Positions 1-26,808 are shown, counted from the stretch's first letter. The stretch: 40,887 nucleotides of DNA from an uncultured Chromatiales bacterium (GCA_964409585.1 CAYPEH010000007.1:1-40887); one strand, 5' to 3'. The notes: generated from the letters alone by a model not told the origin. Translations and numbers: made by a program.

Positions 1-54
1 ATCCTCGCTGTCCCACTTTTTCGCTACGATCCCCCCGAGTCCGACAGGCTGCTA
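1..54. mobile_element. Family-A palindromic MITE-like element, right-hand part only (truncated by window start)
   Basis: Identical to 32960-33013. Contains inner repeat CGCTGTCCCAC and right terminal repeat CCCGAGTCCGACAGGCTGCTA (34-54). Confidence 0.75.
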
Positions 55-141
55 GTATTACGGCCTGTAACGCACATTGCAGTGCGGCACCACCCCTCGC
101 ATCGTGGGGTGTGATGTTGGATTTCTCCAGGGGTCAGAGAA

Positions 142-435
142 GTGGTTCGTTTGTTTTCCGTCTTGTTGTTTCTGGTTGTGACTATGGCCGGGTTGAGCTT
201 TGCCGTTCTCAATTCGGAGACGGTGCCACTCAATTACTATTTCGGTGACCGCAATCTGCCCCTGTCCCTGGTGGTGGTGATTGCCTTTGCCCTGGGTGCA
301 GCCGTGGGCGGGCTCTTCAGTCTGGCGCTTGTTATCAGGCTGAAGAGGGAGATGGCCAGGCTGCGGCGGATCGTGCGCCTGAACGAGAAGGAAATCCTCA
401 ACCTGCGGAGTATCCCCATTAAGGATTCCCACTGA
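142..435 (+). CDS. lapA: LapA (YciS-like) inner-membrane LPS assembly protein, 97 aa, GTG start
   Basis: Two predicted TM helices followed by a basic coiled tail (RLKREMARLRRIVRLNEKE). Lies immediately upstream of lapB as in other proteobacteria. Confidence 0.8.
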   Translation: MVRLFSVLLFLVVTMAGLSFAVLNSETVPLNYYFGDRNLPLSLVVVIAFALGAAVGGLFSLALVIRLKREMARLRRIVRLNEKEILNLRSIPIKDSH

Positions 436-436
436 G

Positions 437-677
437 CCCGCCTGATTCATGGTGGCACCGAAACCCATGGTAACCGGATGAAGATTACAGCCAATCGTCA
501 AGAACAACGACGCTTTGTCTCCATGCTGGCTGGTTTCGGCCTGTCATGGTCCTGGCTGGTTCTGGCACATTTGGGCTTGGGCTTCGCTGACCCCATGGCC
601 ATGAATTCGCCTCCAGCCTTGGATCCAGACGCGCTAGCCTGGCGCCAGGAGCGGCGATCCACCATGAATCAGGCGGG
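437..677. mobile_element. Family-C MITE (241 bp), terminal inverted repeat CCCGCCTGATTCATGGTGG, flanked by 5-bp direct repeat CTGAG
   Basis: Left end CCCGCCTGATTCATGGTGG (437-455). Right end CCACCATGAATCAGGCGGG (659-677). CTGAG at 432-436 and 678-682. Related copy at 20527-20748. Confidence 0.85.
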
Positions 678-682
678 CTGAG

Positions 683-1852
683 ATGTTCGACCCCTTATGG
701 TTGATACTGCCAGCCGTGTTCGTCACGGGCTGGCTGTGGGTGAGGCGCCGTCCCCGCAGTGCCGGTAGTGGCTATCGCCGTAATAATTTCACCTCGGATT
801 ATTTCAAGGGTCTCAACTACGTCCTCCATGAACAGCCGGACAAGGCGATCGAGGTCTTTATCCGCATGGTCGAGGTGGACAGTGAAACGGTGGAGACCCA
901 TCTGGCACTGGGCAATCTTTTCCGCCGCCGTGGAGAGGTGGACCGCGCCATTCGTATTCACCAGAATCTGATTGCCCGCCCCACGCTCAACCGGGAACAG
1001 CGTACCCTGGCGTTATTGGAGCTGGGTGAGGATTACATGCGGGCCGGGCTGTTCGACCGTGCCGAGAACCTGTTCCTGGAACTGATCGAACTCGGCTCCC
1101 ATGCGGTTCCCGCATTGCGTAATCTCGCGGACATCTATCAGCAGGAGAAGGACTGGGAAAAGGCCATCAACATGGAGCGGCGGCTGGCCGTAGAAACGGG
1201 ACGGAATCGCAATGACATCATCGCGCAGTATCTGTGTGAACTTGCCGAGGAGGCACAGAGCCGCGGCGACCATGAACGCACCTGGAAGATGTTGCGCAAG
1301 GCGCTGGCTACAGACCGCAACTGTGTGCGGGCCAGTCTGCTTCAGGGCCATCTGTTCTCTGCAAGTGGTGACCGGGAAGGGGCTATCCGTGCCTACCGCC
1401 GGGTTGCCGAACAGGACATCGATTATCTCCCCGAAGTGATCGGGCCATTGCGAAAATGCTATGAATTGCAGCAGCAGTCGGCCGTGATGATGAGCTATCT
1501 GGAGTCCATGCTGGACCGCTACAAGGGCGTGGCCCCCATGTTGGCGCTGGCTGATATGATCCAACGTCAGCAAGGTGACCAGGCTGCCAGTGAATTCCTT
1601 GCCAGCCGCCTGCGCGCCAATCCCTCCGTGCGCGGCCTGGAGCGCCTGGTTCAACTGAAGATGGCCAACTTGCAGGATTGTGCCCGGGAGAGCATGGAAG
1701 ACCTGCGGTCAGTGACCGTGCGGCTGGTGGAGGACAAACCCTTGTACCGTTGCAAGCACTGTGGATTCACCGGTAAATCACTGCATTGGCAGTGTCCCGG
1801 CTGCAAGACCTGGGGCAGCGTCAAGCCGATGAAAGGTATCGATGGGGAGTGA
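683..1852 (+). CDS. lapB: LapB (YciM) TPR plus rubredoxin-type zinc-finger regulator of LPS biosynthesis
   Basis: 389 aa with an N-terminal TM helix, TPR repeats and the C-terminal motif CKHCGF...WQCPGC typical of LapB. Confidence 0.93.
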   Translation: MFDPLWLILPAVFVTGWLWVRRRPRSAGSGYRRNNFTSDYFKGLNYVLHEQPDKAIEVFIRMVEVDSETVETHLALGNLFRRRGEVDRAIRIHQNLIARPTLNREQRTLALLELGEDYMRAGLFDRAENLFLELIELGSHAVPALRNLADIYQQEKDWEKAINMERRLAVETGRNRNDIIAQYLCELAEEAQSRGDHERTWKMLRKALATDRNCVRASLLQGHLFSASGDREGAIRAYRRVAEQDIDYLPEVIGPLRKCYELQQQSAVMMSYLESMLDRYKGVAPMLALADMIQRQQGDQAASEFLASRLRANPSVRGLERLVQLKMANLQDCARESMEDLRSVTVRLVEDKPLYRCKHCGFTGKSLHWQCPGCKTWGSVKPMKGIDGE

Positions 1853-1856
1853 ATGA

Positions 1857-2582
1857 GTGACACAAGACAGGTCATTGGGGCCACGGATTATCGTTGCCCT
1901 GGATTTTCCGGCTGCACAGCCGGCACTGGATCTGGTGCAGAGGCTGGACCCGCGGCTCTGCCGCCTCAAGGTGGGCAAGGAGTTGTTCACCCGCGCCGGC
2001 CCCACCCTGGTGGAGACCCTGCAGACCCGTGGATTCGAGGTGTTTCTCGACCTGAAATTTCATGATATCCCCAATACCGTGGCGGGGGCCTGTGCGGCGG
2101 CGGCCGATCTGGGGGTCTGGATGGTCAATGTCCATGCCGGCGGCGGCCGTCGCATGATGGAGGCGGCCCGCGAGGCCCTGGACAAAGTGGCCACATCCCC
2201 CCCCCTGTTGATCGCCGTGACGGTGTTGACCAGCATGGCACGTGAGGATCTCAACGAGGTGGGTGTGGATGGTGAACCCGCCGATCAGGTGCAAAGGCTG
2301 GCATCGCTGGCCAACGCCTCCGGCCTCGATGGCGTTGTCTGTTCTCCACGTGAAGTTGCCCTGTTGCGCGCCTCCCAGGGGGATGCCTTTATTCTGGTGA
2401 CCCCGGGCATACGTCCCGCCGGTTCGGCCAGTGATGATCAACGCCGGGTCATGACGCCGGCGCAGGCAATGGAGGCGGGTTCGAACTACCTGGTGATCGG
2501 CAGGCCGGTCACCGCTGCCGATGATCCGATTGCCGCCCTGGATGCGATCAACCGGGATATGAGCCTGTCGGACTTAGGCTGA
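1857..2582 (+). CDS. pyrF: Orotidine-5'-phosphate decarboxylase
   Basis: Matches recalled PyrF motifs: [71 protein letters not shown] start. The last 8 codons and the stop lie in the family-A MITE. Confidence 0.95.
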
Positions 2583-2726
2583 ATTGGCTGAAAAAGCGGG
2601 ACAGCGGTCTCACTTCCCCTGATTTTTCGTTACATAGTCCCCACTATGCTCCTTAAAATCATGGAAAATCATTCTCGCTGTCCCACTTGTTCGCTTCGAT
2701 CCCCCTAAGTCCGACAGGCTCACATC
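2556..2726. mobile_element. Family-A palindromic MITE-like element (about 171 bp)
   Basis: Terminal repeats GATATGAGCCTGTCGGACTTAGG (2556-2578) and CCTAAGTCCGACAGGCTCACATC (2704-2726). Inner repeat GCGGGACAGCG / CGCTGTCCCAC. Copies at 7554-7722 and 32847-33013. Confidence 0.85.
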
Positions 2727-2769
2727 ACCCGAAGAACTCACTGGATACACAGGAAGGTACTGAGCAAGC

Positions 2770-3648
2770 ATGCCTGACAAAATCACCAAGGCCGTGTTTC
2801 CCGTGGCCGGCATGGGAACCCGTTTTCTCCCTGCCACCAAGGCCAATCCCAAGGAAATGCTGCCTATCGTCGACAAGCCGTTGATTCAGTACGCGGTGGA
2901 AGAAGCAGTGGCCGCGGGTATGACGGAACTGGTGTTCGTGACCAGCAGTTCGAAACGCGCCATCGAGGATCATTTCGACAAAAACTGCGAACTGGAAGGG
3001 ATCCTGGACGGACGCGGCAAGAAGGATGTGCTGGATATGGTGCGCAACGTGGTTCCGGATGGCGTTTCCTGCATCTATGTCCGGCAGGCAGAGGCCCTCG
3101 GCCTGGGGCATGCCGTGTTGTGCGCAAGACCGGTAGTCGGTGATGAGCCGTTCGCGGTGATTCTGGCCGACGATCTCATCCATAACGACGAGAAGGGCTG
3201 CCTGAGCCAGATGGTCGAGGTCTATCAGCGGTACGGGTGCAGCGTGCTGGGCGTGGAGCAGGTGGCTGCCGATGAGACGGACAAGTACGGCATCGTGAAG
3301 GTGACCGATGCCGGTGAACGGCTGGGAAAGGTGGAGGAGATCGTGGAGAAGCCCCACCCGGACGAGGCACCGTCCACCCTGGCTGTGGTTGGCCGCTACA
3401 TCCTCACGCCGCGGATCTTCGGTCTGCTGGAGAGGACCCAGGCAGGCGCTGGCGGTGAAATCCAGTTGACCGACGCCATCGCTGAACTCATGCGCGAACA
3501 GGATGCCATGTCCTACGCCTTCGAAGGCACCCGGTACGATTGTGGCAGCAAGCTGGGGTACCTACAGGCCACGGTGGAGTATGCGCTCATGCACGAAGGT
3601 CTGGGTGAGGATTTCCGCAGCTACCTGGAACAGTTGATGGCCAGGTAG
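2770..3648 (+). CDS. galU: UTP--glucose-1-phosphate uridylyltransferase
   Basis: 292 aa. N-terminal KAVFPVAGMGTRFLPATKANPKEMLPIVDKPLIQY is the GalU signature. VEKP motif present. Confidence 0.95.
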   Translation: MPDKITKAVFPVAGMGTRFLPATKANPKEMLPIVDKPLIQYAVEEAVAAGMTELVFVTSSSKRAIEDHFDKNCELEGILDGRGKKDVLDMVRNVVPDGVSCIYVRQAEALGLGHAVLCARPVVGDEPFAVILADDLIHNDEKGCLSQMVEVYQRYGCSVLGVEQVAADETDKYGIVKVTDAGERLGKVEEIVEKPHPDEAPSTLAVVGRYILTPRIFGLLERTQAGAGGEIQLTDAIAELMREQDAMSYAFEGTRYDCGSKLGYLQATVEYALMHEGLGEDFRSYLEQLMAR

Positions 3649-3679
3649 CAATGACACTGGCCGGCAGGGGCTGGCAGGT

Positions 3680-3961
3680 ATTAACCCGGCCACTTAATAT
3701 GTCGTGTTCAGAGCCTCAGGCATCTTCCCTGTCAAGGCGCGCGCCGCAGGCAATGGTCATTCCCTTGGCAAGGCGCGCAACGCCGAGAGGGGAGATGCCT
3801 GAGGCTCCTAACTAATTGATTATAAATGACAGGCCGTGCTGTGCGCGCCCACGGACTGCGTTGTCGAAACTGGCTGTAGGAGTGCTACAGCGGCGTTTCG
3901 ACGCCTTGCCGTGAACGCGCACAGCACGGCTGAACATGACCTATCAGGTGGCCGGGTTAAT
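3680..3961. mobile_element. Family-D composite MITE (282 bp): terminal repeats plus two long internal hairpin modules; the right end is chimeric
   Basis: Left end ATTAACCCGGCCACTTAATATGTCGTGTTCAG. Right end CTGAACATGACCTATCAGGTGGCCGGGTTAAT. Hairpin modules at about 3709-3808 and 3831-3930. Confidence 0.8.
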
Positions 3962-4210
3962 CATGCCGCGTTGCCAACGCTTCACAGCGTAACCCTCCGG
4001 TCCGGATTTCACGCGGCTCGCCTGGGGTGTGTATATGCACAGTCGCTGGACCGGGGAGGTTTCTGTCAGCAAATGAAGAATTTGCTTTACTCTCCAAGAA
4101 AATGAGTTATAAATAGGTCGTAAACCTATAATACTCAATAAGAAAATAACCACGGTTCCGGCCCCAGGCCGGGATATAAGATAAACATTGACGGGGTTGG
4201 GGGTTGCGCC

Positions 4211-4480
4211 ATGCCGGCGGAACAAAATACACAAGATCTTGGGGTCAACAGACCTTCACCACTACATGATCTAATGATCGGCCTGGCTGCCGGACTCGGC
4301 GCCGGCCTTCTCGGTGCGCTGCTGCTCGGCTTGGTGGTGGTGTTGCTTCTACCGGCCGACGGGGTGCGGCAGGCTCGTAATGATGCGGGTTGGGAGATGC
4401 GCGAGGCAGCCTATCAGGCGCCCACGACCACCGCTGAACCCCCTGCAAACCAGGGCCGGGAAGGGCTTACCAGTCTCTGA
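4211..4480 (+). CDS. Hypothetical small membrane protein (89 aa)
   Basis: ATG ORF with one strongly hydrophobic helix (IGLAAGLGAGLLGALLLGLVVVLLL), followed by a good intrinsic terminator at 4500-4534. No recognisable family. Confidence 0.4.
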   Translation: MPAEQNTQDLGVNRPSPLHDLMIGLAAGLGAGLLGALLLGLVVVLLLPADGVRQARNDAGWEMREAAYQAPTTTAEPPANQGREGLTSL

Positions 4481-4499
4481 CCGTTTGTCCGGTGCGCGT

Positions 4500-4534
4500 G
4501 GGGTGACCCCGGGTCACCCCATGTTTTCGTTTTC
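4500..4534 (+). terminator. Rho-independent terminator
   Basis: GGGGTGACC / GGTCACCCC stem followed by ATGTTTTCGTTTTC. Confidence 0.65.
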
Positions 4535-4579
4535 ACCACCTCCCGTTGAAAAGGGTGGGGCAATCCCACCTGTGCGTTC

Positions 4580-7105
4580 ATGCTCCCCTCGCTTCCCGTT
4601 GAAAAGGCCCTGCCGGAACTCGTACAGGCCCTGAAATCAGGATCATCCGCCCTGTTGCAGGCACCGCCGGGTTCCGGCAAGACCACCCTGGTACCGCTGG
4701 CGCTGCTGGATCAGCCCTGGTTGCGCGGCCGGTCCATCCTCATGCTGGAACCGCGCCGTCTGGCGGCGCGCGCGGCCGCCTACCGCATGGCGGATCTGCT
4801 GGGTGAGGAGGTCGGCAGCACGGTGGGTTATCGCACCCGGCTCGACAGTCGTGTTTCCGCGGCAACCCGTATCGAAGTGGTCACCGAGGGCATACTCACA
4901 CGCCGTTTGCAGAACGACCCGGAACTGAAGGGCACGGGTTTGGTGATCTTTGATGAATTCCATGAGAGGAACCTGCACACCGACCTGGGTTTGGCCCTGA
5001 CACTGGATGTCATGCAGGGGCTGCGCGACGATCTGCGGCTGCTGCTCATGTCGGCCACCCTGGATGCGCCTGCGGCCTCGGCCTTGCTCGGCGATGCTCC
5101 GGTGATTCACGCCGGGGGGCGCAGCTACCCGGTGGAGGTCCAATACCTTCCGGCCATGCCCGAGGGGCCTGTCGGCGATGTGGTCGGCGCGGCGGTGGTC
5201 CGCGCACTGAAGGAACGCTCAGGAGACGTACTGGCCTTTTTGCCAGGGGCCGGGGAGATACGCCGGGCCGGGGAATACCTGCGGGGGCGGGCCGAGTGCC
5301 GCGATGTGGAGGTGCTTCCACTCCATGGCGACCTGGGCCGGGAGCAGCAGGACCGGGTGCTGCGATTCGACCCCCATGGGCCAAGGCGTGTGGTACTGGC
5401 CACGCCCATTGCCGAGACCAGCCTCACCATCGAAGGGATACGGGTGGTGGTGGACAGCGGCCTGCGGCGGGAACCCCGTTTCGATCCCGCCAGCGGCCTC
5501 AGCCGCCTGCGCACAGTGAGGATTTCCAAGGCCGCCGCGGAACAGCGGGCTGGACGGGCGGGACGCCTGGCCCCCGGAAGCTGTTACCGTTTGTGGACGG
5601 AATCGGTGCAACGGGGATTGCAGGATCACAGCCGCGCGGAGATTCTCGGCAGCGATCTGTCCTCGCTGGTACTGGAACTGGCCCTGTGGGGGGTACGCTC
5701 GGCGCATGAACTGAAGTGGCTGGACCCGCCGCCGGAAGGGGCCTGGCAGGCTGCCGTCGCCCTGTTGCGTGGCCTGGGGGCCATCGATGCCGTGGGAGCG
5801 ATCACGGCGGCGGGGCGGGAGATGGCCGCCATACCCGCCCATCCCCGTCTGGCGCACATGTTGCGGGAAGGGCGGCGTCTGGGTCTGGCCGGACTGGCCG
5901 CGGATCTGGCCGGCCTGTTGAGCGAGCGGGATCCATTGTTGCCGCCGGCGGTTGGGCTGCAACGGCCGGTGGATCTGGAAACGCGGCTGGAAGCCCTGTG
6001 GGCCTTTCGCCGGGGAGGGGCCTCCGCGGCCAGGGGGCTGGGGGCGGATGCTGCCGTCTGTCGCCGGATCGAGCAGACGGTCCGCCGCTGGCGAAGGGGA
6101 GAGGAGGATGACGCGGACACCGGCGATGGCCGCCTGGGGTTGCTGCTGGCCTTCGCCTATCCGGATCGGGTGGCAGTGGCGCGTGAACCCGGCAGTGGAC
6201 GTTACCGTCTTTCCGGCGGCCGTGGTGCTGCCTTGCCGGCGTACGATGCCCTGGCCCGGGAGCCACTGCTGGTGATTGCGCACATGGATGCCGGACAGGG
6301 TGAGGGGCGTATCCATCTGGCCGCATCGGTCACCAGGGACGATCTGCGCCAGCATCTTCCCGAACATTTCACGGAAGCCACGGAGGTGTACTGGGACGAG
6401 CGTCAACAGGCGGTATCGGCGCGCTGGAGGGAGCGTTTCGGCCGGGTGGTGATGGACGAGCGGCCAGCCACCGATGTGGCGCCCGGCGAGGTTCTGGCCG
6501 CCATGTTGCAGGGGATACGCGGCATGGGCCTGGAGGTCCTGCCCTGGGATCGGGAACTGCGGTTGTGGCGGCAGCGGGTGCAGGCCGTGGCGCACTGGTT
6601 TTCTGAACAGGATTGGCCGGATGTGTCCGACGAGTGGTTGTTGTCCAACCTGGAGGAATGGCTGGGGCCCTACCTGGGCGGGGTCAGCCGGCGTCAGCAT
6701 CTGGAACGAATCGACCTGGGGGCGGCATTGCATGGATTGCTGGACTGGTCCCGGCAACGGCAACTGGATGAATTGGCGCCGACTCACCTGACCGTGCCCA
6801 GCGGATCGCGCATCCGTCTGGAATATGCCGGCCATGGGGAAGTGGTGCTGGCGGTACGTTTGCAGGAACTTTTCGGCCTGGCGGAAACCCCACGGGTCGG
6901 TGGTGGACGCATACCGGTCACCCTGCATCTGTTGTCACCGGCGCGGCGGCCGGTACAGGTCACGCAGGATCTGCGCGGCTTCTGGGAACGCACCTATCCC
7001 GAGGTGAAGAAGGAATTGAAAGGGCGTTACCCCAAGCACCACTGGCCGGACGATCCTTGGAGCGCGCAGCCTACGGCGCGGGCGAAACCGCGGCGGCGGG
7101 TGTAG
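4580..7105 (+). CDS. hrpB: ATP-dependent RNA helicase HrpB (DEAH-box)
   Basis: 841 aa with APPGSGKTT (Walker A), DEFHER (motif II), SAT, and C-terminal HA2/HrpB domains. Adjacent to mrcB as in E. coli. Confidence 0.93.
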   Translation: MLPSLPVEKALPELVQALKSGSSALLQAPPGSGKTTLVPLALLDQPWLRGRSILMLEPRRLAARAAAYRMADLLGEEVGSTVGYRTRLDSRVSAATRIEVVTEGILTRRLQNDPELKGTGLVIFDEFHERNLHTDLGLALTLDVMQGLRDDLRLLLMSATLDAPAASALLGDAPVIHAGGRSYPVEVQYLPAMPEGPVGDVVGAAVVRALKERSGDVLAFLPGAGEIRRAGEYLRGRAECRDVEVLPLHGDLGREQQDRVLRFDPHGPRRVVLATPIAETSLTIEGIRVVVDSGLRREPRFDPASGLSRLRTVRISKAAAEQRAGRAGRLAPGSCYRLWTESVQRGLQDHSRAEILGSDLSSLVLELALWGVRSAHELKWLDPPPEGAWQAAVALLRGLGAIDAVGAITAAGREMAAIPAHPRLAHMLREGRRLGLAGLAADLAGLLSERDPLLPPAVGLQRPVDLETRLEALWAFRRGGASAARGLGADAAVCRRIEQTVRRWRRGEEDDADTGDGRLGLLLAFAYPDRVAVAREPGSGRYRLSGGRGAALPAYDALAREPLLVIAHMDAGQGEGRIHLAASVTRDDLRQHLPEHFTEATEVYWDERQQAVSARWRERFGRVVMDERPATDVAPGEVLAAMLQGIRGMGLEVLPWDRELRLWRQRVQAVAHWFSEQDWPDVSDEWLLSNLEEWLGPYLGGVSRRQHLERIDLGAALHGLLDWSRQRQLDELAPTHLTVPSGSRIRLEYAGHGEVVLAVRLQELFGLAETPRVGGGRIPVTLHLLSPARRPVQVTQDLRGFWERTYPEVKKELKGRYPKHHWPDDPWSAQPTARAKPRRRV

Positions 7106-7492: not shown

Positions 7493-7553
7493 GGTGGTGC
7501 GGATTGTCGGGCCTGGTCCAGTCGGCTGCAAGCGTGGACTCAGCAGCGGGTCG

Positions 7554-7722
7554 CTAGGAGTCTGTCGGACTTAGGATGAATCGGCTGCAAAAGCGGGACA
7601 GCGGTCTAATTTCCCCTGATTTTTCGTCACATGGTGCCCACCATGTTCCTCAAAATCATGAAAAATTCCCCTCGCTGTCCCACTTTTTCGCTACGATCCC
7701 CCTAAATCCGACAGACTCCTAG
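7554..7722. mobile_element. Family-A palindromic MITE-like element (169 bp)
   Basis: CTAGGAGTCTGTCGGACTTAGG (7554-7575) and CCTAAATCCGACAGACTCCTAG (7701-7722). Internal sequence matches 2579-2703. Confidence 0.85.
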
Positions 7723-9300: not shown

Positions 9301-9462
9301 ACCTGAATCCGTGGGTTCAGAGGGGATGCAGAGTGCGGGATATTGATTCGAATGGCGTAATGAAAAATCGCAGCCATACCCCACGGTCTGGTGAGATTTT
9401 TCATATAGCCAGACGGATCAAGAGCTTGCGCTATGCGCCCCGATGAACCCACGGATTCAGGT
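9301..9462. mobile_element. Family-B MITE (162 bp), ends ACCTGAATCCGTGGGTTCA / TGAACCCACGGATTCAGGT
   Basis: 19-bp perfect terminal inverted repeats. The interior is the reverse complement of the copy at 17854-18015. Confidence 0.85.
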
Positions 9463-12847: not shown

Positions 12848-14794
12848 TTATTTGTTGGCGCGATTGGCGATCAGGTCGTCCACCACGGAGGGATCGGCCA
12901 GGGTGGAGGTGTCGCCCAGGGCGTCGATCTCGTTGGCGGCGATCTTGCGCAGGATGCGGCGCATGATCTTGCCGGAACGGGTCTTGGGCAGGCCCGGCGC
13001 CCACTGGATGATATTGACCTTGGCGATGGGGCCGATTTCGGTCCGCACCAGTTGCACCAGTTCGGCCTTCAGGTCGTCCGTTCCATCGATGCCGTGCCGC
13101 AGGGTGACATAGGCGTAGATGCCCTGGCCGGTGATTTCGTGGGGATAACCCACCACGGCCGCCTCCGCCACGTGCGGGTGCAGCACCAGCGCGGATTCGA
13201 TCTCGGCGGTGCCGAGGCGGTGGCCGGACACGTTCAACACGTCATCGACACGGCCGGTGATCCAGTAGTAGCCGTCTTCATCGCGGCGCGCGCCGTCCCC
13301 GGTGAAGTAGTAGCCCTTGTACATGGAGAAATAGGTCTGGTAGAAGCGGTCGTGGTCGCCATAGACGGTACGCATCATGGATGGCCAGGGATGCTTGATG
13401 GCCAGGTTGCCGGAGGCCGGGTTGCCCTCGACCAGATTGCCCTCGTCGTCCAGCAGCACCGGCTGCACACCGAAGAAGGGGTTGGTGGCGGAACCGGGTT
13501 TGAGCGGAGTGGCGCCGGGCAGGGGGGTCAGCATGTGCGCGCCGGTCTCGGTCTGCCACCAGGTATCCACGATGGGGCAGCGCTCTTCGCCGACCACGCG
13601 GTAGTACCATTCCCAGGCTTCCGGGTTGATGGGTTCGCCGACGGTGCCGAGCAGGCGCAGGCTGGAGCGGCTGGTGGCCTTGACCGGATCCTCGCCGACG
13701 GCCATCAGGGCGCGGATGGCGGTGGGGGCGGTGTAGAAGCTGGCTACCTGGTGTTTGTCGCAGACCTGCCAGAAGCGGCCGGCATCCGGGTAGGTGGGGA
13801 CACCCTCGAACATCAGACTGGTGGCGCCGTTGGTCAGCGGGCCATAGACGATGTAGCTGTGGCCGGTGACCCAGCCGATGTCGGCGGTGCACCAGTAGAC
13901 CTCGCCGTCCTTGTAGTCGAACACCAGTTTGTGGGTCATGGCCGCCTGAAGCAGGTAGCCGCCGGTGGTGTGCAGCACGCCCTTGGGTTTGCCGGTGGAG
14001 CCGGAAGTATAGAGGATGAACAGCGGGTCTTCGGCGTCCATCTGTTCGGGTTCACAGACCGGGTCGGCCGTCTCCATGGCCTCGTGGTACCAGACGTCAC
14101 GGCCCTCGGTCCATTCCACCGGCTGGCCGCCGCGCTGCACGACGATGGAGGTGTGGACGTTGGGGCATTGCGCCAGTGCCGCATCGGCGTTCTTTTTCAG
14201 CGGCAGCGCCTTGCCGCCGCGGATGGACTGATCGGCGGTGATCAGGCATTGGCAATCGGAGTCGAGGATACGGTCCCTCAGGGCGTCCGGGGAGAAGGCG
14301 CTGAAGACGATGGAATGTACGGCGCCGATGCGGGTACAGGCGAGCATGGCCACTACCGCCTCCGGGATCATGGGCATGTAGATGGATACCCGGTCACCCT
14401 TTTTCACGCCACGGCTCTTCAGCACGTTGGCGAACTTGTTCACGTCGGCGTGCAGTTGCCGGTAGGTGATCTTTTTGTCTTCTTCCGGGTCGTCGCCTTC
14501 CCAGAGTATGGCGGTCTGGTCGCCACGGGTTTCCAGGTGCCGGTCCAGGCAGTTGTAGGAGACGTTCAGTTTTCCGCCCTTGAACCACTCGATGTGCAGA
14601 TCGTCCTCCATAAAGCTCCAGTCGAGTACCTTGTCCCAGGGTTTGAACCAGCTGAGGTATTTATTGGCCTGTTCGCCCCAGAAACCTTCCGGGTCGTCCA
14701 CCGACTGCTGATACATCCGCTGGTACTGTTCCGCGGTGATGTTGGCCTGTGCGGCGAAATCCTCCGGTACCGGATAGACCTTGTCTTCGCTCAT
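12848..14794 (-). CDS. acs: Acetyl-CoA synthetase (AMP-forming)
   Basis: 648 aa. [14 protein letters not shown]-binding motif, WWQTETG, and C-terminal SGKIMRR with the regulated Lys. Confidence 0.97.
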
Positions 14795-14960
14795 TTTTTT
14801 ACACCTCGCTCAATCAATGATGGTGGTGGCGATCCGTCGGCGGCCGGGTGAATCGTCCGGGATCTTCATGATGCCTCGGCTGTCTGGATACGCTACCTGC
14901 TATGGTTGATAACTACCCCGGTGAATGCAATACGTCCGGGTGATTTACGTGTGATCCCCG

Positions 14961-15650
14961 TCAATTGGTGATGAAGTCTCCCAGTGAGCATTTCCCGTCA
15001 CGGTTCCGTTCCGCCACCATGGCCAGGAACAGTTCGGCGGTGGCCAGCGCGTCACTGAGTGCGTTGTGTGCCTTGTATCGTGGCAGATGGTATTTCGTCC
15101 GCAGATTGAACAGACGCAGGTCGGAGGGCTTGTAGACCGCGTGTGCTCGCTCCAGACGGCGCCTTGCCAGCATCTGGGTGTCGATGGTCGGGACGATGAA
15201 GGGCGCGCCATAGATGCGCTGGCAGGCCGCATCGATGAACTGCTGTTCCACGGCGGCATAGTGGGCCAGCATCACCCGTCCTTTCAGCCGTTCCAGCAGC
15301 CTGGGAAGGACTTCGTCCAGGGGCTGGCCGGCTGCCGCCTGGTCGTCGGTGATCTGATGGATGACGGCGCTTTCCTCCGGAATGTCCCGCCCGACCTGCA
15401 CGATCTGGTGCCAGGCGGTGTTCAGACGGATGCTCATCCCCTCGATATGGACCAGGCCGATGCTGACGATTACGTCCCTGGCCGGGGCCAGGCCGGTGGT
15501 CTCCAGGTCGAGGGCGACGATCCCCGCTTCCCGGCAGGAGGTGGCCGGGGAGGGGGGCGGAGTGGCCAGAAAGTCGCGCATCGGCCCCGGGCCGAGTTTC
15601 TTCAGGGCCCGGCGGCGGCGGAATTTCCGGCTGATCAGTCGTTCCAGCAT
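14961..15650 (-). CDS. DnaQ/DEDD-family 3'-5' exonuclease (DNA polymerase III epsilon-like, stand-alone)
   Basis: 229 aa. ExoI motif ALDLETTGL and C-terminal H..LSDA motif. Lies 10 nt downstream of the DUF294 gene. Confidence 0.85.
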   Translation of the reverse strand: MLERLISRKFRRRRALKKLGPGPMRDFLATPPPSPATSCREAGIVALDLETTGLAPARDVIVSIGLVHIEGMSIRLNTAWHQIVQVGRDIPEESAVIHQITDDQAAAGQPLDEVLPRLLERLKGRVMLAHYAAVEQQFIDAACQRIYGAPFIVPTIDTQMLARRRLERAHAVYKPSDLRLFNLRTKYHLPRYKAHNALSDALATAELFLAMVAERNRDGKCSLGDFITN

Positions 15651-15660
15651 GGGGGGCCAC

Positions 15661-17526
15661 TCAGGTGAAACGCCCGCCTTGGTAGCGGTTGGAGAGGGTT
15701 TCCTGCATGGTCTGGATCACCTTGAAGGCGTCCTTCAAGTGTTCGCGTTCCAGTTCGGACAGGCCATCCGGGGCCAGATAGTTGTTCGGGGCCTGACCGT
15801 TGCGGATCTGGCTGGCTTGGTGCTGAATGCGCAGGGAGGCGATGAATTCGAGGGCATCCTCCAGATTCTCACCCATCTCCCCGCTGAGTGCGCCGCACTC
15901 ACGTGCTTCACGCAGGCGTTCCGTGGTATTGACGGCGGTCAGGCCTTCAGACAGGGCATAGACGCGCGCCAGATCGGTGATGGGGACGATGCCGCGATGT
16001 TTGATATCGAAGGTGTCGTCGTGCTCTCCGCCGCTGATGAGGACGAAGGTGCGGAAGAAGCCGAGGGGCGGACGGTGCTGCAAGGCATTGGCCGCCATGA
16101 AGGCGATGAATATACGATTCTGCCGGGTCTTTTCCAGCACTTCGTGCTGCAAGCGGTTGAGCAGCCAGGTGGCGCCGCCAATGGCGCGCAGATCGAAGAA
16201 GATGCTGGAGAGCATCAATGCCTTGGGCTCGGGGCGATGGATCCAGTCGTCGAAATAGCGGCGCCAGACACTCAATGGCTGGCGCCACTGGGGATTGGTG
16301 GCCATGGCGTCGCCGGGGCAGTAATAGAAGCCGCAGGCATTGAGGCCGTCACTGACGAAGCGGGCCAGCTTTTCGAAATATTTATCATCCGCCGGGCTCA
16401 TTTCATCGTCGATGATCAGGGCGTTGTCCTGGTCGGAGTGGGATGTCTGCTCGCGGCGCGCCTGCGAGCCTCCGGCCACCCACACATACGGCACGGGCGG
16501 TGGCCCCAGCTGCTCTTCGGCCATCTCCAGCAGGCGGTTGGTGATGGAGTCGGTGATACAGGAAATGGCCTCGCCGATGTGCAGGGCGGTGGCGCTGGAA
16601 TTGGCCAGTTGCAATTGCAGTTCGGGCAGTTTTCTGCTGACCTGGGCCAGGTCCCCGATGGTCTGCGATTTGCGGATGTCGGTGGCGATGAAGGCCGAGT
16701 TCGTGGCCTGGTGACGGGCCAGGTCCGATGCCGTCAGCATGCCCACCAGATGGCCGTCCTGGACGACGGGGAGGTGGTGGACGTGCAGGCGGGTCATGGT
16801 CAGCAGCGCCTGGATCACCAGTTCCTTGTCCTCGATGGTCTCCACCTCGGTGGTCATGATGCGGCTGACCGGCTCGGTAACGGCAAGACCTTCGGCGACA
16901 CAGCGCATGCGCAGGTCACGATCCGTGATCAGACCGGCCAGCTTGCCGTCTTCCATGATCATCACCGAGGATACGCTGTTTCCGGTCATCACCCGGGCCG
17001 CCTCCTGGATGCTGGTTGCCGCGTCGATGGTGATGGCCTGTTTCCTGATCAGATCCTTGACCTCGACGGTCATGTAGGCAGCCGTGTTGTCGCCCAGCCC
17101 CTGCACCCGGCGTACGGCGAGTTGCAGGCGTTCCCGCAGGGAGGCGGAGAAGTGGCGGTTGAAGTCCTCCGACTGGCGTTTCAGTTCCTGTAGTGTTTCG
17201 CAGCCGATGAGGTAGATCAGGCTGTCCTCGGCGGCGGTTCCCCTGAGTCCCTCGGACAGGTCGACCAGTTGGCATTCGGTGGTGTAGAGATCCCCCTCAC
17301 CGAGTTTTTCCGCCAGGTTGCCGTCGCTGTTGCGCAGATCGATGCAGCCACTGCGGATGATGTAGAGATAACCGCGGGTCGTGTCCTGCGGCGGGAATGG
17401 GGATTGACGCCGGAGGTAGCGTATCTCCATGTCCCTGGGCAGTTGATCGAGGACCGCCGGCGGCAGGGAGCTGAATGGCTCACGCTGGGCCAGAAATTCA
17501 CGGATTTCGAGCAGTTCGATTTCCAT
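15661..17526 (-). CDS. cNMP-binding / tandem CBS / DUF294 putative nucleotidyltransferase
   Basis: 621 aa. N-terminal cyclic-nucleotide-binding-like fold, two CBS repeats, then a GlnD-like nucleotidyltransferase core (GGSQARREQTSHSDQDNALI) and a DUF294_C-like tail. Confidence 0.85.
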   Translation of the reverse strand: MEIELLEIREFLAQREPFSSLPPAVLDQLPRDMEIRYLRRQSPFPPQDTTRGYLYIIRSGCIDLRNSDGNLAEKLGEGDLYTTECQLVDLSEGLRGTAAEDSLIYLIGCETLQELKRQSEDFNRHFSASLRERLQLAVRRVQGLGDNTAAYMTVEVKDLIRKQAITIDAATSIQEAARVMTGNSVSSVMIMEDGKLAGLITDRDLRMRCVAEGLAVTEPVSRIMTTEVETIEDKELVIQALLTMTRLHVHHLPVVQDGHLVGMLTASDLARHQATNSAFIATDIRKSQTIGDLAQVSRKLPELQLQLANSSATALHIGEAISCITDSITNRLLEMAEEQLGPPPVPYVWVAGGSQARREQTSHSDQDNALIIDDEMSPADDKYFEKLARFVSDGLNACGFYYCPGDAMATNPQWRQPLSVWRRYFDDWIHRPEPKALMLSSIFFDLRAIGGATWLLNRLQHEVLEKTRQNRIFIAFMAANALQHRPPLGFFRTFVLISGGEHDDTFDIKHRGIVPITDLARVYALSEGLTAVNTTERLREARECGALSGEMGENLEDALEFIASLRIQHQASQIRNGQAPNNYLAPDGLSELEREHLKDAFKVIQTMQETLSNRYQGGRFT

Positions 17527-17601
17527 AGGGATTGGAAAGTTTAGAGACTAACCGCAAAGGCACACCGGGTTACGCCAAGGAAAAACCATTTTTTTATTGT
17601 G

Positions 17602-17850
17602 ACCTGAATCCTGCAAGTAGTTTGGCATTGCTCCGCACCTCCTGTGCTCCGCCCTTCGAGCCGCACTGCGTGCGTTCCCATCCGCTCCCGACGGATGGGT
17701 CGGTCGCCGAATCAGGCCCTCAAGCTGTGTTGGCCGCACCGGTTTCGTACTCGACGTAGCGCCGCTACGCCTGCGCCGCAACCGGCTTGCCGCCTTGTCC
17801 AGGGGCCTGCTCGACGCCCTCGGTACTCAAACCACTTGCAGGATTCAGGT
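17602..17850. mobile_element. Family-E MITE (249 bp), ends ACCTGAATCCTGCAAGTAGTTTG / CAAACCACTTGCAGGATTCAGGT
   Basis: 23-bp terminal inverted repeat sharing its outermost ACCTGAATCC with family B. The interior (17647-17702) carries the YTCCCGA-loop hairpin motif. Confidence 0.75.
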
Positions 17851-17853
17851 TGA

Positions 17854-18015
17854 ACCTGAATCCGTGGGTTCATTGGAGCGCATAGCGCAATCTCTTGATC
17901 CGCCTGGCTATATGAAAAATCTCACCAGACCGTGGGGTATGGCTGCGATTTTTCATTACGCCATTCGAATCAATATCTTGCACTCTGCATCCCCTCTGAA
18001 CCCACGGATTCAGGT
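17854..18015. mobile_element. Family-B MITE (162 bp), opposite orientation to 9301-9462, flanked by TGA/TGA
   Basis: ACCTGAATCCGTGGGTTCA ... TGAACCCACGGATTCAGGT. TGA at 17851-17853 and 18016-18018. Confidence 0.85.
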
Positions 18016-18021
18016 TGAAGG

Positions 18022-18050
18022 AAAAAAGGCCCCGCCGGAGCGGGGCCTTT
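18022..18050 (-). terminator. Rho-independent terminator downstream of actP
   Basis: On the minus strand, AAAGGCCCCGC-TCCG-GCGGGGCCTTT is followed by TTTTTTCC. Confidence 0.8.
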
Positions 18051-18072
18051 GGCAACCGGGGTAAACCGGTTG

Positions 18073-19851
18073 TTAGTGGCCGATCGCACCTGTGGAGCCC
18101 TTGGGCACGCGGATGTCTTCGACCAAGTGCTGGATGTGCTCCGGAGGCGGAGTGGTGAACTTGGAGACGGTGAGAGCGACCGCGAAGTTGACCACAGCGC
18201 CGACGGCACCGAAGGCATTGGGGGAGATGCCCAGGAACCAGTTCGGACCCATGTCACCGAGGAAGGAGGTGCCCGGGATGAACATGATGCCCTTGTGCTG
18301 GAACACGTACAGCATGGTGACACCGATGCCGGAGATCATGCCGGCAATGGCGCCCGCCCGATTCACCTTCTTGCCGAAGATGCCCATCATCAGCACGGGG
18401 AAGATGGAGGAGGCGGCCAGACCGAAGGCGATGGCCACGGTGCCGGCTGCGAAATCGGGCGGATGCAGGCCGAAGTAACCGGCCAGTGCGATGGCGCCGG
18501 CCATGGCGACACGGCCTGCCATCAGCTCGCTCTTCTCAGAGATGTCGGGTGCGAAGACACCCTTGAGCAGATCGTGGGAGATGGCCGAGGAGATGGCCAG
18601 CAGCAGGCCCGCCGCGGTGGACAGGGCTGCGGCGAGACCACCGGCCACCACCAGGGCGATGACCCATGCGGGAAGATTGGCGATTTCAGGGTTGGCAAGC
18701 ACCATGATGTCGCGGTCCACCTTGACCATCTCGTTGCCCTTCCATCCCCAGGCTTCTGCCTTCTTGGCCATTTCCGGGTTCTTGTCGTTGTAGTACTGGA
18801 TTCGGCCGTCGCCGTTCTTGTCCTCGTACTTCAACAGACCGGTCTTCTCCCAGTTCTTGAACCAGGCCGGTGCCTCGTCGTACTTCAGGTTGGCGGTCTC
18901 TTCACCCACCGGGCCATGCTGGATGGTGGTCATCAGGTTCAGACGGGCCATGGAGCCGACGGAAGGAGCGGTGGTGTACAGGATGGCGATGAACACCAGG
19001 GCCCAACCGGCGGAGGAACGGGCGTCCTTGACCTTCGGCACGGTGAAGAAGCGGATGATGACGTGGGGCAGGCCCGCGGTACCGATCATCAGCGACAGGG
19101 TATAGACGAACATGTTGAGCTTGCTGCCCATGACTTGTGTCGTGTATTCCTTGAAGCCCAGCTCGGTGACGACCTGATCCAGACGGTCCAGCATGTAGGT
19201 GCCGTCGGCCATCTCACTGCCGAGGCCCAGCTGCGGGATGGGATTGCCGGTCAGGTGCATGGAGATGAAGATGGCCGGCACGGTGTAGGCGAAGATCAGC
19301 ACGCAGTACTGGGCGATCTGGGTGTAGGTGATGCCCTTCATGCCGCCCAGCACGGCGTAGATGAAGACGATGCCCATGCCGATGTACAGGCCGGTGTCGT
19401 AGTCGGTCTCCAGGAAACGGGAGAAGGCTACGCCGATACCCTTCATCTGGCCGATGACGTAGGTCACCGAGGCCAGGATCAGGCAGATGACGGCCACGAT
19501 TCGCGCGGTACGCGAGTAGTAACGGTCACCGATGAATTCCGGTACCGTGAACTTGCCGAACTTGCGCAGGTATGGCGCCAGCAGCATGGCCAGCAGCACG
19601 TAACCGCCGGTCCAGCCCATCAGGAATACCGATGCGCCGTAACCGTTGAATGCGATGAGACCTGCCATGGAGATGAAGGAGGCGGCGGACATCCAGTCAG
19701 CAGCTGTGGCCATGCCGTTGGCGACGGGGTGGACCCCCTTGCCGGCCACGTAGAACTCACCGGTGGTTCCGGCGCGCGCCCAGATGGCGATGCCGATGTA
19801 CAGCGCGAAGCTAGCGCCGACAACGACATAAGTCATAGTTTGAAGATCCAT
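18073..19851 (-). CDS. actP: Sodium:solute symporter family, acetate permease type (ActP / VC_2705 subfamily)
   Basis: 592 aa polytopic SSF protein, paired with a DUF4212 small subunit and located in the acs neighbourhood. Confidence 0.9.
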   Translation of the reverse strand: MDLQTMTYVVVGASFALYIGIAIWARAGTTGEFYVAGKGVHPVANGMATAADWMSAASFISMAGLIAFNGYGASVFLMGWTGGYVLLAMLLAPYLRKFGKFTVPEFIGDRYYSRTARIVAVICLILASVTYVIGQMKGIGVAFSRFLETDYDTGLYIGMGIVFIYAVLGGMKGITYTQIAQYCVLIFAYTVPAIFISMHLTGNPIPQLGLGSEMADGTYMLDRLDQVVTELGFKEYTTQVMGSKLNMFVYTLSLMIGTAGLPHVIIRFFTVPKVKDARSSAGWALVFIAILYTTAPSVGSMARLNLMTTIQHGPVGEETANLKYDEAPAWFKNWEKTGLLKYEDKNGDGRIQYYNDKNPEMAKKAEAWGWKGNEMVKVDRDIMVLANPEIANLPAWVIALVVAGGLAAALSTAAGLLLAISSAISHDLLKGVFAPDISEKSELMAGRVAMAGAIALAGYFGLHPPDFAAGTVAIAFGLAASSIFPVLMMGIFGKKVNRAGAIAGMISGIGVTMLYVFQHKGIMFIPGTSFLGDMGPNWFLGISPNAFGAVGAVVNFAVALTVSKFTTPPPEHIQHLVEDIRVPKGSTGAIGH

Positions 19852-19872
19852 GGATTCTGTACCCCCCTGGTG

Positions 19873-20130
19873 TCAGTCTTCGTGCACGTCAAACTCTTGA
19901 TCGAGTTTGTTCATGCGTGAGGCGTAGTAGAAGATCAGCGCCACGAAAACGTAGATCGACCCTTGCTGGGCGAACCAGAAACCGAGACCCACGCCACCCA
20001 CATGGATGTTGTTCAGCACATCCGAAAGGATGATGCCGAACAGGTAGGACACGGTGAACCAGATCGACAGACAGATGGTCAGGAGGCGCAGATTCGCCTT
20101 CCAATAATCGGAGGCGTTGCTTGTACTCAT
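19873..20130 (-). CDS. DUF4212 putative solute:sodium symporter small subunit
   Basis: 85 aa with two TM helices. YWKANLRL and GFWFAQQGSIYVF motifs. Lies 21 nt upstream of the symporter gene. Confidence 0.75.
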   Translation of the reverse strand: MSTSNASDYWKANLRLLTICLSIWFTVSYLFGIILSDVLNNIHVGGVGLGFWFAQQGSIYVFVALIFYYASRMNKLDQEFDVHED

Positions 20131-20526
20131 CGTTATATCTCTCCCCTGTGATCGTTGACTTTGGTGTTGTTCGAAGAACCCTATGAGTGATCGGAGCAGG
20201 GCTTCTTTCTTTCATATGGCCCTCGTCGTCACACCACTAGATGGCTTCACCCCATAGAAGAGGCCAAGACTGATGTTCCGGGCTGCTTCCGGACATGTCA
20301 AATCGGGGCTAACTCTCTGTCCGCAAAGGACAAATAAAATCCTGAGCGACATGAAACAATGGCCGGAAAATTGGGGTGATGGGAAACAGCAGCACGGGGT
20401 AAATGTTACGAAAGGAAACGGAATCACGGCCCAGGGTAACCTTTCGGCGATTTGTGAGGCGGGGCGGAAAAGAGGCAGCCGGGAGGGGGGAATCCGCGCT
20501 TTTTCCCCCACATCCGCTCCGTTGAA

Positions 20527-20748
20527 CCCGCCTGATTCATGGTGGCGAGCAAAGCCCATGGAACCGGATGAAAGTCATGAGCCATCATCCAAGGGTAGTG
20601 GGCTTCGGCCTGTCACGGCCCTGTCCGGTTCTGGCGTGCCTGGACTTGGGCTTCGCCGAATCCATAGCGGTGGGGATTCGGCTCCAACCCGGTGCCCAGC
20701 CGCACCGGCCCAGCGCCAGGAACCGCGATCCACCATGAATAAGGCGGG
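20527..20748. mobile_element. Family-C MITE (222 bp) flanked by 5-bp direct repeat TTGAA
   Basis: CCCGCCTGATTCATGGTGG ... CCACCATGAATAAGGCGGG. TTGAA at 20522-20526 and 20749-20753. Confidence 0.85.
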
Positions 20749-20842
20749 TTGAAAGGGGGAGTTACCGCCGGCCGGTGTGCTCGGGGCAGGGGGAGGGGAA
20801 TAAAGATGTGTTGCCGGACTGTGCTCCGGGAGGACTGGAGAT

Positions 20843-21424
20843 TTACTGGGTCGTACTCTGTGTTGCCATGTAGCGGTTGGACAACCACAACACGTCGGCG
20901 TCTTCCAGCCTCAGGTCATCGCCCAGTCTTGCCAGCACGACACCATGCTCGGTCACCCAGCGATAGACGCCGGGGCCGCCCGCTTGCGCATCGACGGCCG
21001 CCGGGGCACCCAATTCGCCGCGCAACTGCCGGTGCAGAAAGGCCTGATGCGCCGGTTGGAAGCCGATCTTGACCACGGACAGGTGTCCGTCACGGAAAAA
21101 AATCTTTGCATAGCGGGCTGGCACACCGTTGAAGGAGGCGATGGCACTACTGCACAGCCGGTCCCCGAAGTTGCTCTGCCGTTCCTCGCAGTGAAATGGA
21201 ACCTCGGGAAAACTGGCGCGGAAATCGTCCTCGATGACCGCTCCCTGCAACTTGGCGAAGGCGATATCCATGTCCTCCGTGCCTTTCAGCAGTGCCGTCA
21301 TCACCATGTCGGTACGGCGTTGGCCGTCGTCGGTGAAGACCAGCCAGAAGAACGGCCCGAACACCAGCATCAGCAGCATGAGTTTTTTGTAGAGCGGGTT
21401 GACGGTGAATCGTTTGTTGGTCAT
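20843..21424 (-). CDS. Hypothetical membrane-anchored protein (193 aa)
   Basis: ATG ORF with an N-terminal TM helix (LMLLMLVFGPFFWLVF). Same strand as cbrB and orf145, 45 nt downstream of orf145. No recognisable family. Confidence 0.6.
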   Translation of the reverse strand: MTNKRFTVNPLYKKLMLLMLVFGPFFWLVFTDDGQRRTDMVMTALLKGTEDMDIAFAKLQGAVIEDDFRASFPEVPFHCEERQSNFGDRLCSSAIASFNGVPARYAKIFFRDGHLSVVKIGFQPAHQAFLHRQLRGELGAPAAVDAQAGGPGVYRWVTEHGVVLARLGDDLRLEDADVLWLSNRYMATQSTTQ

Positions 21425-21469
21425 GGGGTAATCAGGAAAGCTCTGAATGGGGTGGGGCCTTCCGGACTC

Positions 21470-21907: not shown

Positions 21908-21913
21908 GTTGGT

Positions 21914-23251: not shown

Positions 23252-23307
23252 GGTGGGGGGATTATACGCATGCGGGAAGGGAACGGGGGGTGCCCATTCA
23301 TTTAACA

Positions 23308-26503: not shown

Positions 26504-26545
26504 CTCCTTCCCGGCCCCGGCGGGGACCGTGCCGGGGATTATATT

Positions 26546-26748: not shown

Positions 26749-26808
26749 AGCGTCGCGCCGGAAACGCGCCGCCGCCGTCGCCGCTCGTTTGCGCGGGAGG
26801 TTGCATGC

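Follow-up and report, generated by a model that had tools for sequence, protein, structure and literature searches.

A perfect 3.9-kb lapA-lapB-pyrF-galU duplicate in a Chromatiales metagenome contig is probably a repeat-induced assembly loop

Introduction

A contig of 40,887 nucleotides from an uncultured Chromatiales bacterium (GCA_964409585.1, CAYPEH010000007.1; the whole contig was analyzed and is referred to here as the window) carries lapA-lapB-pyrF-galU twice, once behind ihfB and once beside a small open reading frame and hrpB. This arrangement raises the question of whether the genome holds a second, relocated copy of these genes or whether the second copy was created during assembly. 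An assembly artefact was among the three options that the earlier note on this DNA had offered, and it is the one we now prefer: the 3.9-kb duplicate is probably a repeat-induced assembly loop, and not a second, relocated lapA-lapB-pyrF-galU copy.

Results

Extent and Boundaries of the Exact Repeat

In a pairwise comparison, the two copies of the repeat (1-3940 and 32960-36899) differ at 0 of 3,940 nt, which bears out the identity described earlier together with the gene content lapA-lapB-pyrF-galU and the duplication of both embedded MITEs (Table 1). A perfect match over 3.9 kb cannot be chance. The first mismatch lies at 3941/36900, where divergence had been placed; homology does not stop there, however, as 18 of the next 21 positions (3941-3961 vs 36900-36920) agree, with differences at 3941, 3945, and 3947, and past 3961/36920 the similarity falls to about 25%, the random level. 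The limit of homology is the end of a 282-bp MITE, not position 3940. The second copy was correctly assigned to a conserved cmk-rpsA-ihfB-lapA-lapB-pyrF context, which is present in four other assemblies.

On the left, the window is the whole 40,887-bp contig, with nothing before base 1, and base 1 is therefore a contig end; the longest recorded contig encoding HrpB, GalU, LapB, Acs, Bax1-I, and PBP1b has this same length. The statement that the first copy runs off the window is thus wrong in one respect, and the record holds only the right flank of this copy, its left boundary being a contig end inside a MITE. This D1-type MITE is about 170 bp long and its CTAG end falls at base 55. The largest default k of SPAdes and metaSPAdes is 55, and a start on 55 nt of a MITE is the mark that a k=55 de Bruijn graph leaves at the end of a contig; the contig opens on a k=55 repeat vertex. 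Because bases 1-55 are the terminal 55 nt of the MITE, the duplicated block consists of exactly one graph edge between repeats, together with the MITE core common to the copies. Other assemblies obey the same rule: the Logan contig L007, built with k=31, begins 30 nt short of where another D1 MITE ends (2692 vs 2721). The right end of the window (40887) is not at a repeat, and not every contig end here is therefore explained by repeats.

Table 1. Coordinates of the repeat copies, their genes, and the boundary elements in the window.
Feature	Position	Strand	Description
Contig start	1-55	+	Exactly the last 55 nt (ending ...CCGACAGGCTGCTAG) of the D1-type MITE; identical to 32960-33014
Repeat copy 1	1-3940	+	lapA-lapB-pyrF-galU, two embedded MITEs, first 261 nt of the junction MITE
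LapA-domain protein, copy 1	142-435		Precomputed Pfam match on equivalent genes of related contigs
Embedded MITEs, copy 1	433-681 and 2553-2721		Also duplicated in copy 2
lapB, copy 1	683-1852		
pyrF, copy 1	1857-2582		
galU, copy 1	2770-3648		
Junction MITE	3680-3961	+	282 bp, chimeric: 3680-3940 identical to the galU-side copy; last 21 nt with 3 differences
One full period	3941-36899	+	32,959 bp, hrpB…rpsA…galU
Period genes, first part			Small ORF (4274-4480), hrpB, 123-aa ORF, AAA_33 kinase-like, mrcB, TPR, acs, DEDD exonuclease, CBS/DUF294
Period genes, middle			VC_2705 symporter and DUF4212, sigma54 response regulator and sensor kinase, gluQ, dksA, HAD
Period genes, last part			cmk, rpsA, ihfB, lapA, lapB, pyrF, galU
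Right-hand neighbours of copy 1	4274-7105	+	Small ORF (68 aa, 4274-4480), then hrpB
D1-type MITE between ihfB and lapA	32842-33014	+	Last 55 nt equal the contig start
Repeat copy 2	32960-36899	+	cmk-rpsA-ihfB-lapA-lapB-pyrF-galU context, also seen in independent assemblies
MITE_B, downstream of galU	36639-36920	+	Matched TIRs (97% complementary)
MITE core	36663-36899	+	237 nt; in a k=127 graph, probably exactly common to MITE_B and one or more other MITE copies

Multi-Copy Repeats at Both Boundaries

The elements that bound the duplicate are short, non-coding, present in many copies, and bear terminal inverted repeats (TIRs), as expected of MITEs. The D1 family has four copies in the contig (three sequences standing for the four copies were aligned), with the TIR CTAGGAGCCTGTCGGACTTAGG and CTAG/TTAG flanks. 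The 282-bp family has 32-nt TIRs and is represented in the contig by two full and two partial or variant copies, and in metagenomes by 18 loci at 70-93% identity; most of its copies have TA on both flanks, a TA that could belong to the TIR. The TIRs of the junction MITE pair at 88%, compared with 97% for MITE_B, which is directly followed by a hairpin plus T-run (36921-36955). The extent of the MITE core was deduced from contig ends in sample 3300023503, namely the 127-mers 36663-36789 and 36773-36899. At least two further copies with mosaic TIR ends occur in the genome (Logan break points 3944/3945 and 36905/36906), making the core a multi-copy repeat that is prone to mis-joins. The duplicate is bounded on both sides, by the D1-type MITE on the left and the 282-bp MITE on the right, by multi-copy repeats with exact common segments longer than k.

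Repeat Geometry and Its Biological Readings

The right end of the repeat lies inside a MITE, its left end is a contig end at a MITE, and its offset is the distance between the two MITE copies; it follows that the only consistent biological geometry is a head-to-tail repeat of 32,959 bp, and a dispersed copy of 3.9 kb does not fit. tRNA-Ser was the sole match of the contig in an Rfam scan. A separate lapA-galU copy of 3.9 kb, inserted upstream of hrpB or maintained by gene conversion, would place two independent break points exactly on MITEs and set the copy down, in the same orientation, upstream of a gene 33 kb away, while its left break point is nothing but the contig end. Such a dispersed segmental duplication is seen in no other assembly, the window itself being the one contig that places lapA-galU beside hrpB, and it explains nothing beyond what a loop or a tandem repeat explains; we consider it very unlikely. 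The relocation of the lapA-galU block beside hrpB proposed in the earlier note is not supported, given the head-to-tail geometry, and neither is the galU-MITE-hrpB order, found in 0 of 5 other assemblies.

A real head-to-tail duplication or amplification of the 32,959-bp hrpB...galU unit deserves more weight, and we regard it as possible, if doubtful. It would have arisen by RecA-type unequal crossing-over between two direct MITE copies, leaving the junction MITE as the recombinant join point, and the contig would then run from the last 3.9 kb of an upstream unit through one complete unit into the downstream flank. The geometry fits exactly, as the repeat ends inside a MITE and the MITE at the join point is hybrid, with the left 261 nt of MITE_B joined to a foreign right tip; furthermore, the left and right TIR variable segments match in most members of the 282-bp family and do not match in the junction copy. 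The TIRs of another MITE copy in the window (26539-26749) are unmatched too, however, and TIR mismatch is therefore no unique mark of recombination. Also weighing against a tandem duplication, the visible duplicate starts exactly at the k=55 repeat vertex, which is a boundary of the assembler and not a biological one.

Sibling Assemblies of the Same Population

Five further assemblies represent this population, at about 99.9% identity; all of them have the single-copy layout and break at exactly the points described above. The related samples are Lo'ihi iron-mat metagenomes, one of which was sequenced with 101-bp reads and later reassembled by metaSPAdes v3.10; the window's own contig may stem from a different assembly. 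Across the five assemblies, the passage from galU through the MITE into the downstream flank is read by three contigs (L004, L006, and L120) and the passage from galU through the MITE into hrpB by none, and in four of them the period unit runs on into the downstream flank. Exact-protein look-ups with HrpB, the 68-aa ORF, the 123-aa ORF, and the TPR protein showed that every hrpB contig in the other assemblies begins inside the MITE, and no contig among the matches to these four hrpB-side proteins crosses the hrpB-side MITE leftwards. From position 3814 onward the window is identical to the independent hrpB contigs, with a 127-nt overlap with the galU-MITE_B context of 1-3940. The junction brings no new sequence: one side of it is the galU-MITE_B context, and the other the independent hrpB contigs.

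One sibling contig, Ga0256915_100308, spans 3814-36789, or 32,976 bp, which is one period of 32,959 bp plus 17 nt. A contig of one period with 17-nt matching ends could suggest that the unit is circular, as a replicon or as a recombination product that was excised, and that the galU-MITE-hrpB junction closes it. In a k=127 graph, however, the 17-nt excess is fully accounted for as 127+127-237: the k=127 contigs have 127-mers of the MITE core as their termini, and a downstream-flank contig (L118) starts at 36773, on the same 127-mer as the start of the one-period contig. Moreover, the unit is core chromosome (rpsA, cmk, pyrF, lapB, mrcB, dksA), four assemblies extend it into the downstream flank, and replication or integration genes were not found among the families matched in it. 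A 33-kb circular replicon was rejected on these grounds, and a circle of any kind appears exceedingly improbable.

A contig from 3300039233 starts at 3851, which fits no simple k=127 prediction, and its MITE_B has a 27-nt deletion. The IDBA-UD k=240 assembly 3300009408 has no contig with these exact hrpB-side proteins, and a look-up of the pentapeptide-repeat protein found no record. The junction 28-mer (3941-3968) had 0 matches in metagenome and viral collections, which evidently lack contigs of this population. In relatives, the hrpB flanks have no conserved neighbour and no galU upstream (the best HrpB match among those listed is only 60% identical), and synteny can therefore not name the true left neighbour of the hrpB-side MITE.

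Discussion

An Assembly-Graph Loop as the Preferred Explanation

In the preferred explanation, the window is a complete contig assembled from short reads of a hydrothermal iron-mat metagenome. MITE_B lies downstream of galU, and a near-identical copy with the same orientation would precede the small ORF and hrpB at a distance of 33 kb. A core common to both copies and longer than the k-mer would create a cycle in the assembly graph, leading from hrpB to ihfB, through lapA-lapB-pyrF-galU to the MITE core and back to hrpB; a single exit would open onto the real downstream flank. A walk of 1.12 turns round this cycle of about 33 kb would give the contig. Its first edge would be the one between the end of the D1-type MITE and the 282-bp MITE (lapA-galU), from which it would pass through the MITE core to hrpB and round the unit to lapA-galU again, and then leave into the downstream flank. 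At the hrpB-side MITE, the assembler would have taken galU in place of the true left neighbour, a choice that may have been made by coverage-consistent or single-candidate extension because the true neighbour was hard to assemble.

Zero divergence over 3,940 nt, a junction absent from the independent assemblies, and a start defined by the assembler all argue for such a loop. On the other side, an assembler guided by read pairs would be expected to join galU and hrpB only where some support exists, and the hrpB-side MITE shows no other left neighbour in any assembly, although the galU-side copy is crossed in three. This asymmetry would also be expected from a real and common tandem duplication, since hrpB would then have two true left contexts; the hrpB contigs of four other assemblies, which all break off in the MITE, whereas the galU-side copy is crossed, agree with that prediction, and the assembler did make the galU-hrpB join. 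In addition, the unit holds an acetate-scavenging module (acs, the VC_2705 symporter, and the sigma54 two-component pair) on which selection for amplification might plausibly act. Against a tandem duplication, the junction appears in 0 of 5 independent assemblies, and no outer parental MITE copy is ever seen joined to a left flank of its own. Large tandem duplications are also unstable and rarely reach high frequency without selection.

Should the junction be real, the Lo'ihi iron mats would host an uncultured gammaproteobacterium with a MITE-mediated 33-kb tandem duplication or amplification within its core genome, at high frequency across several samples, a prospect we hold to be rather unlikely. 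It would represent a natural, selected copy-number polymorphism caught in a metagenome, comprising the acetate-scavenging module with rpsA, lapB, mrcB, and hrpB, with 282-bp MITEs and not IS or rrn operons as the recombination substrate. This would add one more case of the well-understood repeat-mediated tandem duplication, in the form of a copy-number variant occurring naturally in an uncultured vent bacterium. If the duplicate is instead an artefact, the public record wrongly implies two copies of lapB, pyrF, and galU and an adjacency of galU and hrpB, and the locus yields a recipe for spotting such loops: a duplicate that starts at a contig end, k nt from the end of a repeat, and ends in a second repeat, with a contig of exactly one period in sibling assemblies as a further sign. 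Neither outcome touches an open question. Arguments from lapB dose are premature while the second copy is unproven.

Comparison With Known Systems

Metagenome assemblers are known to leave repeats of k length, of which 55, 77, and 99 bp have been described, and to string more than a single turn of a cycle into one contig (CheckV, PMC8116208). Similarly, the window begins with 55 nt of a repeat, a piece of k length, and contains sequence more than once at 100% identity, and its duplicated part would correspond to a graph cycle travelled more than once. In the CheckV cases the cycle is a real circular viral genome, whereas here it would be formed by two near-identical MITEs 33 kb apart on a chromosome, and the walk would exit into unique flank after 1.12 turns.

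Repeat-mediated duplications offer the other comparison, with join points of REP-mediated duplications known from Salmonella. Documented IS-mediated tandem duplications include one of 208.6 kb in Burkholderia thailandensis (PMC9946442) and one of 165 kb, flanked by ISPsy5, in Pseudomonas syringae DC3000 (PMC3916326). Like the duplications in these three bacteria, the unit considered here measures tens of kb and is flanked by direct repeats, with identical copies and a hybrid join point inside the repeat. Unlike those of B. thailandensis and P. syringae, its repeats are 282-bp MITEs and not IS, and the record contains no more than 3.9 kb of the putative upstream copy; its junction is known from the sequence of one contig and occurs in no other assembly.

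Bacterial MITEs include IS630/Tc1-like, TA-flanked elements. The boundary elements of the window resemble bacterial MITEs in their length of 170-282 bp, their TIRs of 20-32 nt, the absence of an ORF, and their multi-copy, intergenic occurrence.

Extent and geometry of the repeat

Pairwise comparison of both copies showed that every base of 1-3940 is identical to 32960-36899, and the first mismatch was found at 3941/36900, where the earlier note had placed the divergence. The repeat is genuinely present in the sequence, and chance is ruled out. Over the next 21 nt (3941-3961 vs 36900-36920) 18 of 21 positions match, with mismatches at 3941, 3945 and 3947; beyond 3961/36920 similarity drops to the random level. 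The copies are offset by 32,959 bp, and their ends stand in the same relation (36899 = 3940 + 32,959); the contig therefore consists of the final 3,940 nt of one unit, then a complete unit (3941-36899) and a downstream flank (36900-40887). This geometry describes a 32,959-bp period joined in a MITE and not, as had been proposed, a 3.9-kb block relocated next to hrpB; a join of biological origin would mean a 33-kb repeat in head-to-tail arrangement. The argument from lapB dosage is premature and should not be made before a second copy is proven.

The longest recorded contig with six different window proteins (NCBI, JGI, Logan) is 40,887 bp, the same as the window, which is therefore the complete contig, with nothing left of base 1. 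Bases 1-55 are the exact terminal 55 nt of a MITE of a second family, D1. The largest default k of SPAdes and metaSPAdes is 55. Assembler-made repeats of 55, 77 and 99 bp are described in the CheckV study (PMC8116208).

Features of the contig, in window coordinates unless a contig is named
Feature	Position	Remarks
LapA-domain protein, copy 1	142-435	Pfam match on equivalent genes of related contigs
lapB, copy 1	683-1852	
pyrF, copy 1	1857-2582	
galU, copy 1	2770-3648	
282-bp MITE, copy 1	3680-3961	TIRs 32 nt: ATTAACCCGGCCAC.../...GTGGCCGGGTTAAT
282-bp MITE, copy 2 (MITE_B, galU side)	36639-36920	TIRs 32 nt
Other MITEs of 282-bp type	26539-26749, 32575-32650	
282-bp family, other metagenomes	L090-L107	e.g. 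L097 1338-1619, L096 408-707, L101 1385-1670
D1 MITEs	2553-2721, 7550-7722, 32842-33014, 35512-35680	~170 bp; TIR CTAGGAGCCTGTCGGACTTAGG
MITE group	433-681 (= 33392-33640), 20523-20752	
MITE group	9301-9462, 17854-18015	162 nt
Unit	3941-36899	small ORF, hrpB, 123-aa ORF, AAA_33 kinase-like, mrcB, TPR protein, acs, DEDD exonuclease, CBS/DUF294, VC_2705-type symporter + DUF4212, sigma54 response regulator + sensor kinase, gluQ, dksA, HAD, cmk, rpsA, ihfB, lapA, lapB, pyrF, galU
Acetate-scavenging module	12848-26313 (-)	acs, DEDD exonuclease, CBS/DUF294 nucleotidyltransferase-like protein, VC_2705-family Na+/solute symporter + DUF4212, two small uncharacterized ORFs, sigma54-dependent AtoC-like regulator, AtoS-like sensor kinase
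Hairpin	36921-36955	AAAAAAAAGCGCAGCGGAAACCGCTGCGCTTTTTTT
76-nt direct repeats	38893-38968, 39219-39294	93% alike
tRNA-Ser(tga)	39058-39145 (-)	

The MITE at the join

The right end of the repeat falls within the 282-bp MITE. The copy-1 element equals MITE_B over its first 261 nt, with all three differences confined to the last 21 nt, and its TIR pairing is only 88% (inverted-repeat entry I8) vs 97% in MITE_B (I7). Because full-length family members on unrelated metagenome contigs each carry their own variable TIR segment, matched left and right, and the copy-1 element does not, it is a chimera of a MITE_B left part and a right tip from another copy, although the short variant at 26539-26749 likewise has unmatched TIRs. 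A hybrid at the join point is the expected remnant of unequal crossing-over, and thus favors a real MITE-mediated tandem duplication of the 33-kb unit.

The 282-bp family also occurs at 70-93% identity in other metagenomes' contigs of 45-69% GC, mostly at contig ends. The ends of Logan contigs L003 and L119 (k=31), at window 3944/3945 and 36905/36906, imply that additional MITE copies, with right TIRs that are mosaic variants (C,T,? and A,T,G), lie at other sites in the genome; the mosaic tips suggest many near-identical copies or inter-copy exchange. Directly 3' of MITE_B lies a perfect, GC-rich hairpin with A8 and T7 runs on either side, which looks like a candidate bidirectional terminator between galU and a convergent 64-aa gene, and which is absent after copy 1.

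Contigs from other assemblies of this population

Exact-protein look-ups retrieved contigs ~99.9% identical to the window from JGI assemblies 3300023503, 3300023507, 3300009408 and 3300039233 and Logan runs SRR5189948/49. Of these, 3300009408 is a Lo'ihi Seamount iron-mat composite assembly made with IDBA-UD (k up to 240, 101-308 bp reads; PMC5520029), and Ga0256915 and Ga0257019-23 are the same samples reassembled with metaSPAdes v3.10 (PMC7029218). Three contigs (L004, L006, L120) read through galU, MITE_B and the downstream flank, while the order galU-MITE-hrpB was found in none of the retrieved JGI and Logan contigs; all hrpB-bearing contigs begin within the MITE, at 3814, 3818, 3851 or 3915. 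Three assemblies cross the MITE on the galU side and none crosses the one on the hrpB side, a pattern that would fit two true left contexts of hrpB, as a tandem duplication predicts, and comparable IS-mediated duplications of 165 kb (PMC3916326) and 208.6 kb (PMC9946442) are on record. Against this, the junction is in no independent assembly, the left boundary as visible was set by the assembler, and the outer parental MITE was never observed; we consider a real tandem duplication possible but rather unlikely.

In 3300023503 the unit is a separate contig, 3814-36789, of 32,976 bp, or one period + 17 nt, and the downstream-flank contig (L118) starts at 36773. These ends are what a k=127 graph with a 237-nt common MITE core (36663-36899) gives: both contigs begin on the 127-mer 36773-36899 (= 3814-3940), the unit contig's last 127-mer is 36663-36789, and 127+127-237 = 17. 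The same rule holds for the Logan contigs built at k=31, with L007 starting 30 nt ahead of a D1 MITE's end.

The 3300039233 strain (L120, 14690-15080) has a 27-nt deletion within MITE_B (window 36755-36781) and a galU stop changed from TAG to TGG (36605-36607), extending GalU from 292 to 294 aa. Between-sample SNPs concentrate in a pentapeptide-repeat gene (39615-40705) near the contig's right end, including 7/8 differences to L006. Other assemblies continue past 40887 into rlmL, and strain variation may be the reason why the contig stops there.

An assembly loop as the probable origin

Since the core common to the two MITE copies exceeds k, any de Bruijn graph built from this genome has a cycle, duplication or not; it runs from unit to core and back to the unit, with a way out into the downstream flank, and a walk of 1.12 turns would yield exactly the contig observed. 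The junction requires no new k-mers, as the galU context covers 1-3940 and independent hrpB contigs cover 3814 onward (127-nt overlap), and the duplicated block corresponds exactly to a single graph edge, from the D1-MITE end to the 282-bp MITE, together with the common core. Concatenating a cycle over more than a single turn is a known behavior of metagenome assemblers (CheckV, PMC8116208). Taken together, these observations make an assembly loop the best explanation, and the apparent duplication is therefore probably of this origin. The assembler would have taken galU over the true left neighbor of the hrpB-side MITE, likely because that neighbor consists of repeats or varies between strains, a property that would equally explain why no assembly reaches it. 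A dispersed 3.9-kb duplication, which is very unlikely, and a 33-kb circle, which is more improbable still, both explain less and are contradicted by the exit to the downstream flank and by gene content. An assembly loop is a repeat-induced artefact and the alternative a repeat-mediated tandem duplication; either outcome is of a known kind, and no new mechanism is required.

Other repeats and modules on the contig

MITEs are unusually frequent on this contig: they make up at least four TIR-bearing families, 160-280 bp in size, all intergenic and several side by side; these are places where other assemblies break. The inverted pair 9301-9462 and 17854-18015 (96% alike) encloses mrcB, TPR, acs, exonuclease and DUF294 (8.4 kb) and is a potential inversion substrate. 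The acetate-scavenging module lies on the minus strand. The contig's only tRNA gene is flanked on either side by the 76-nt direct repeats, to which a 31-nt piece at 17672-17702 is related.
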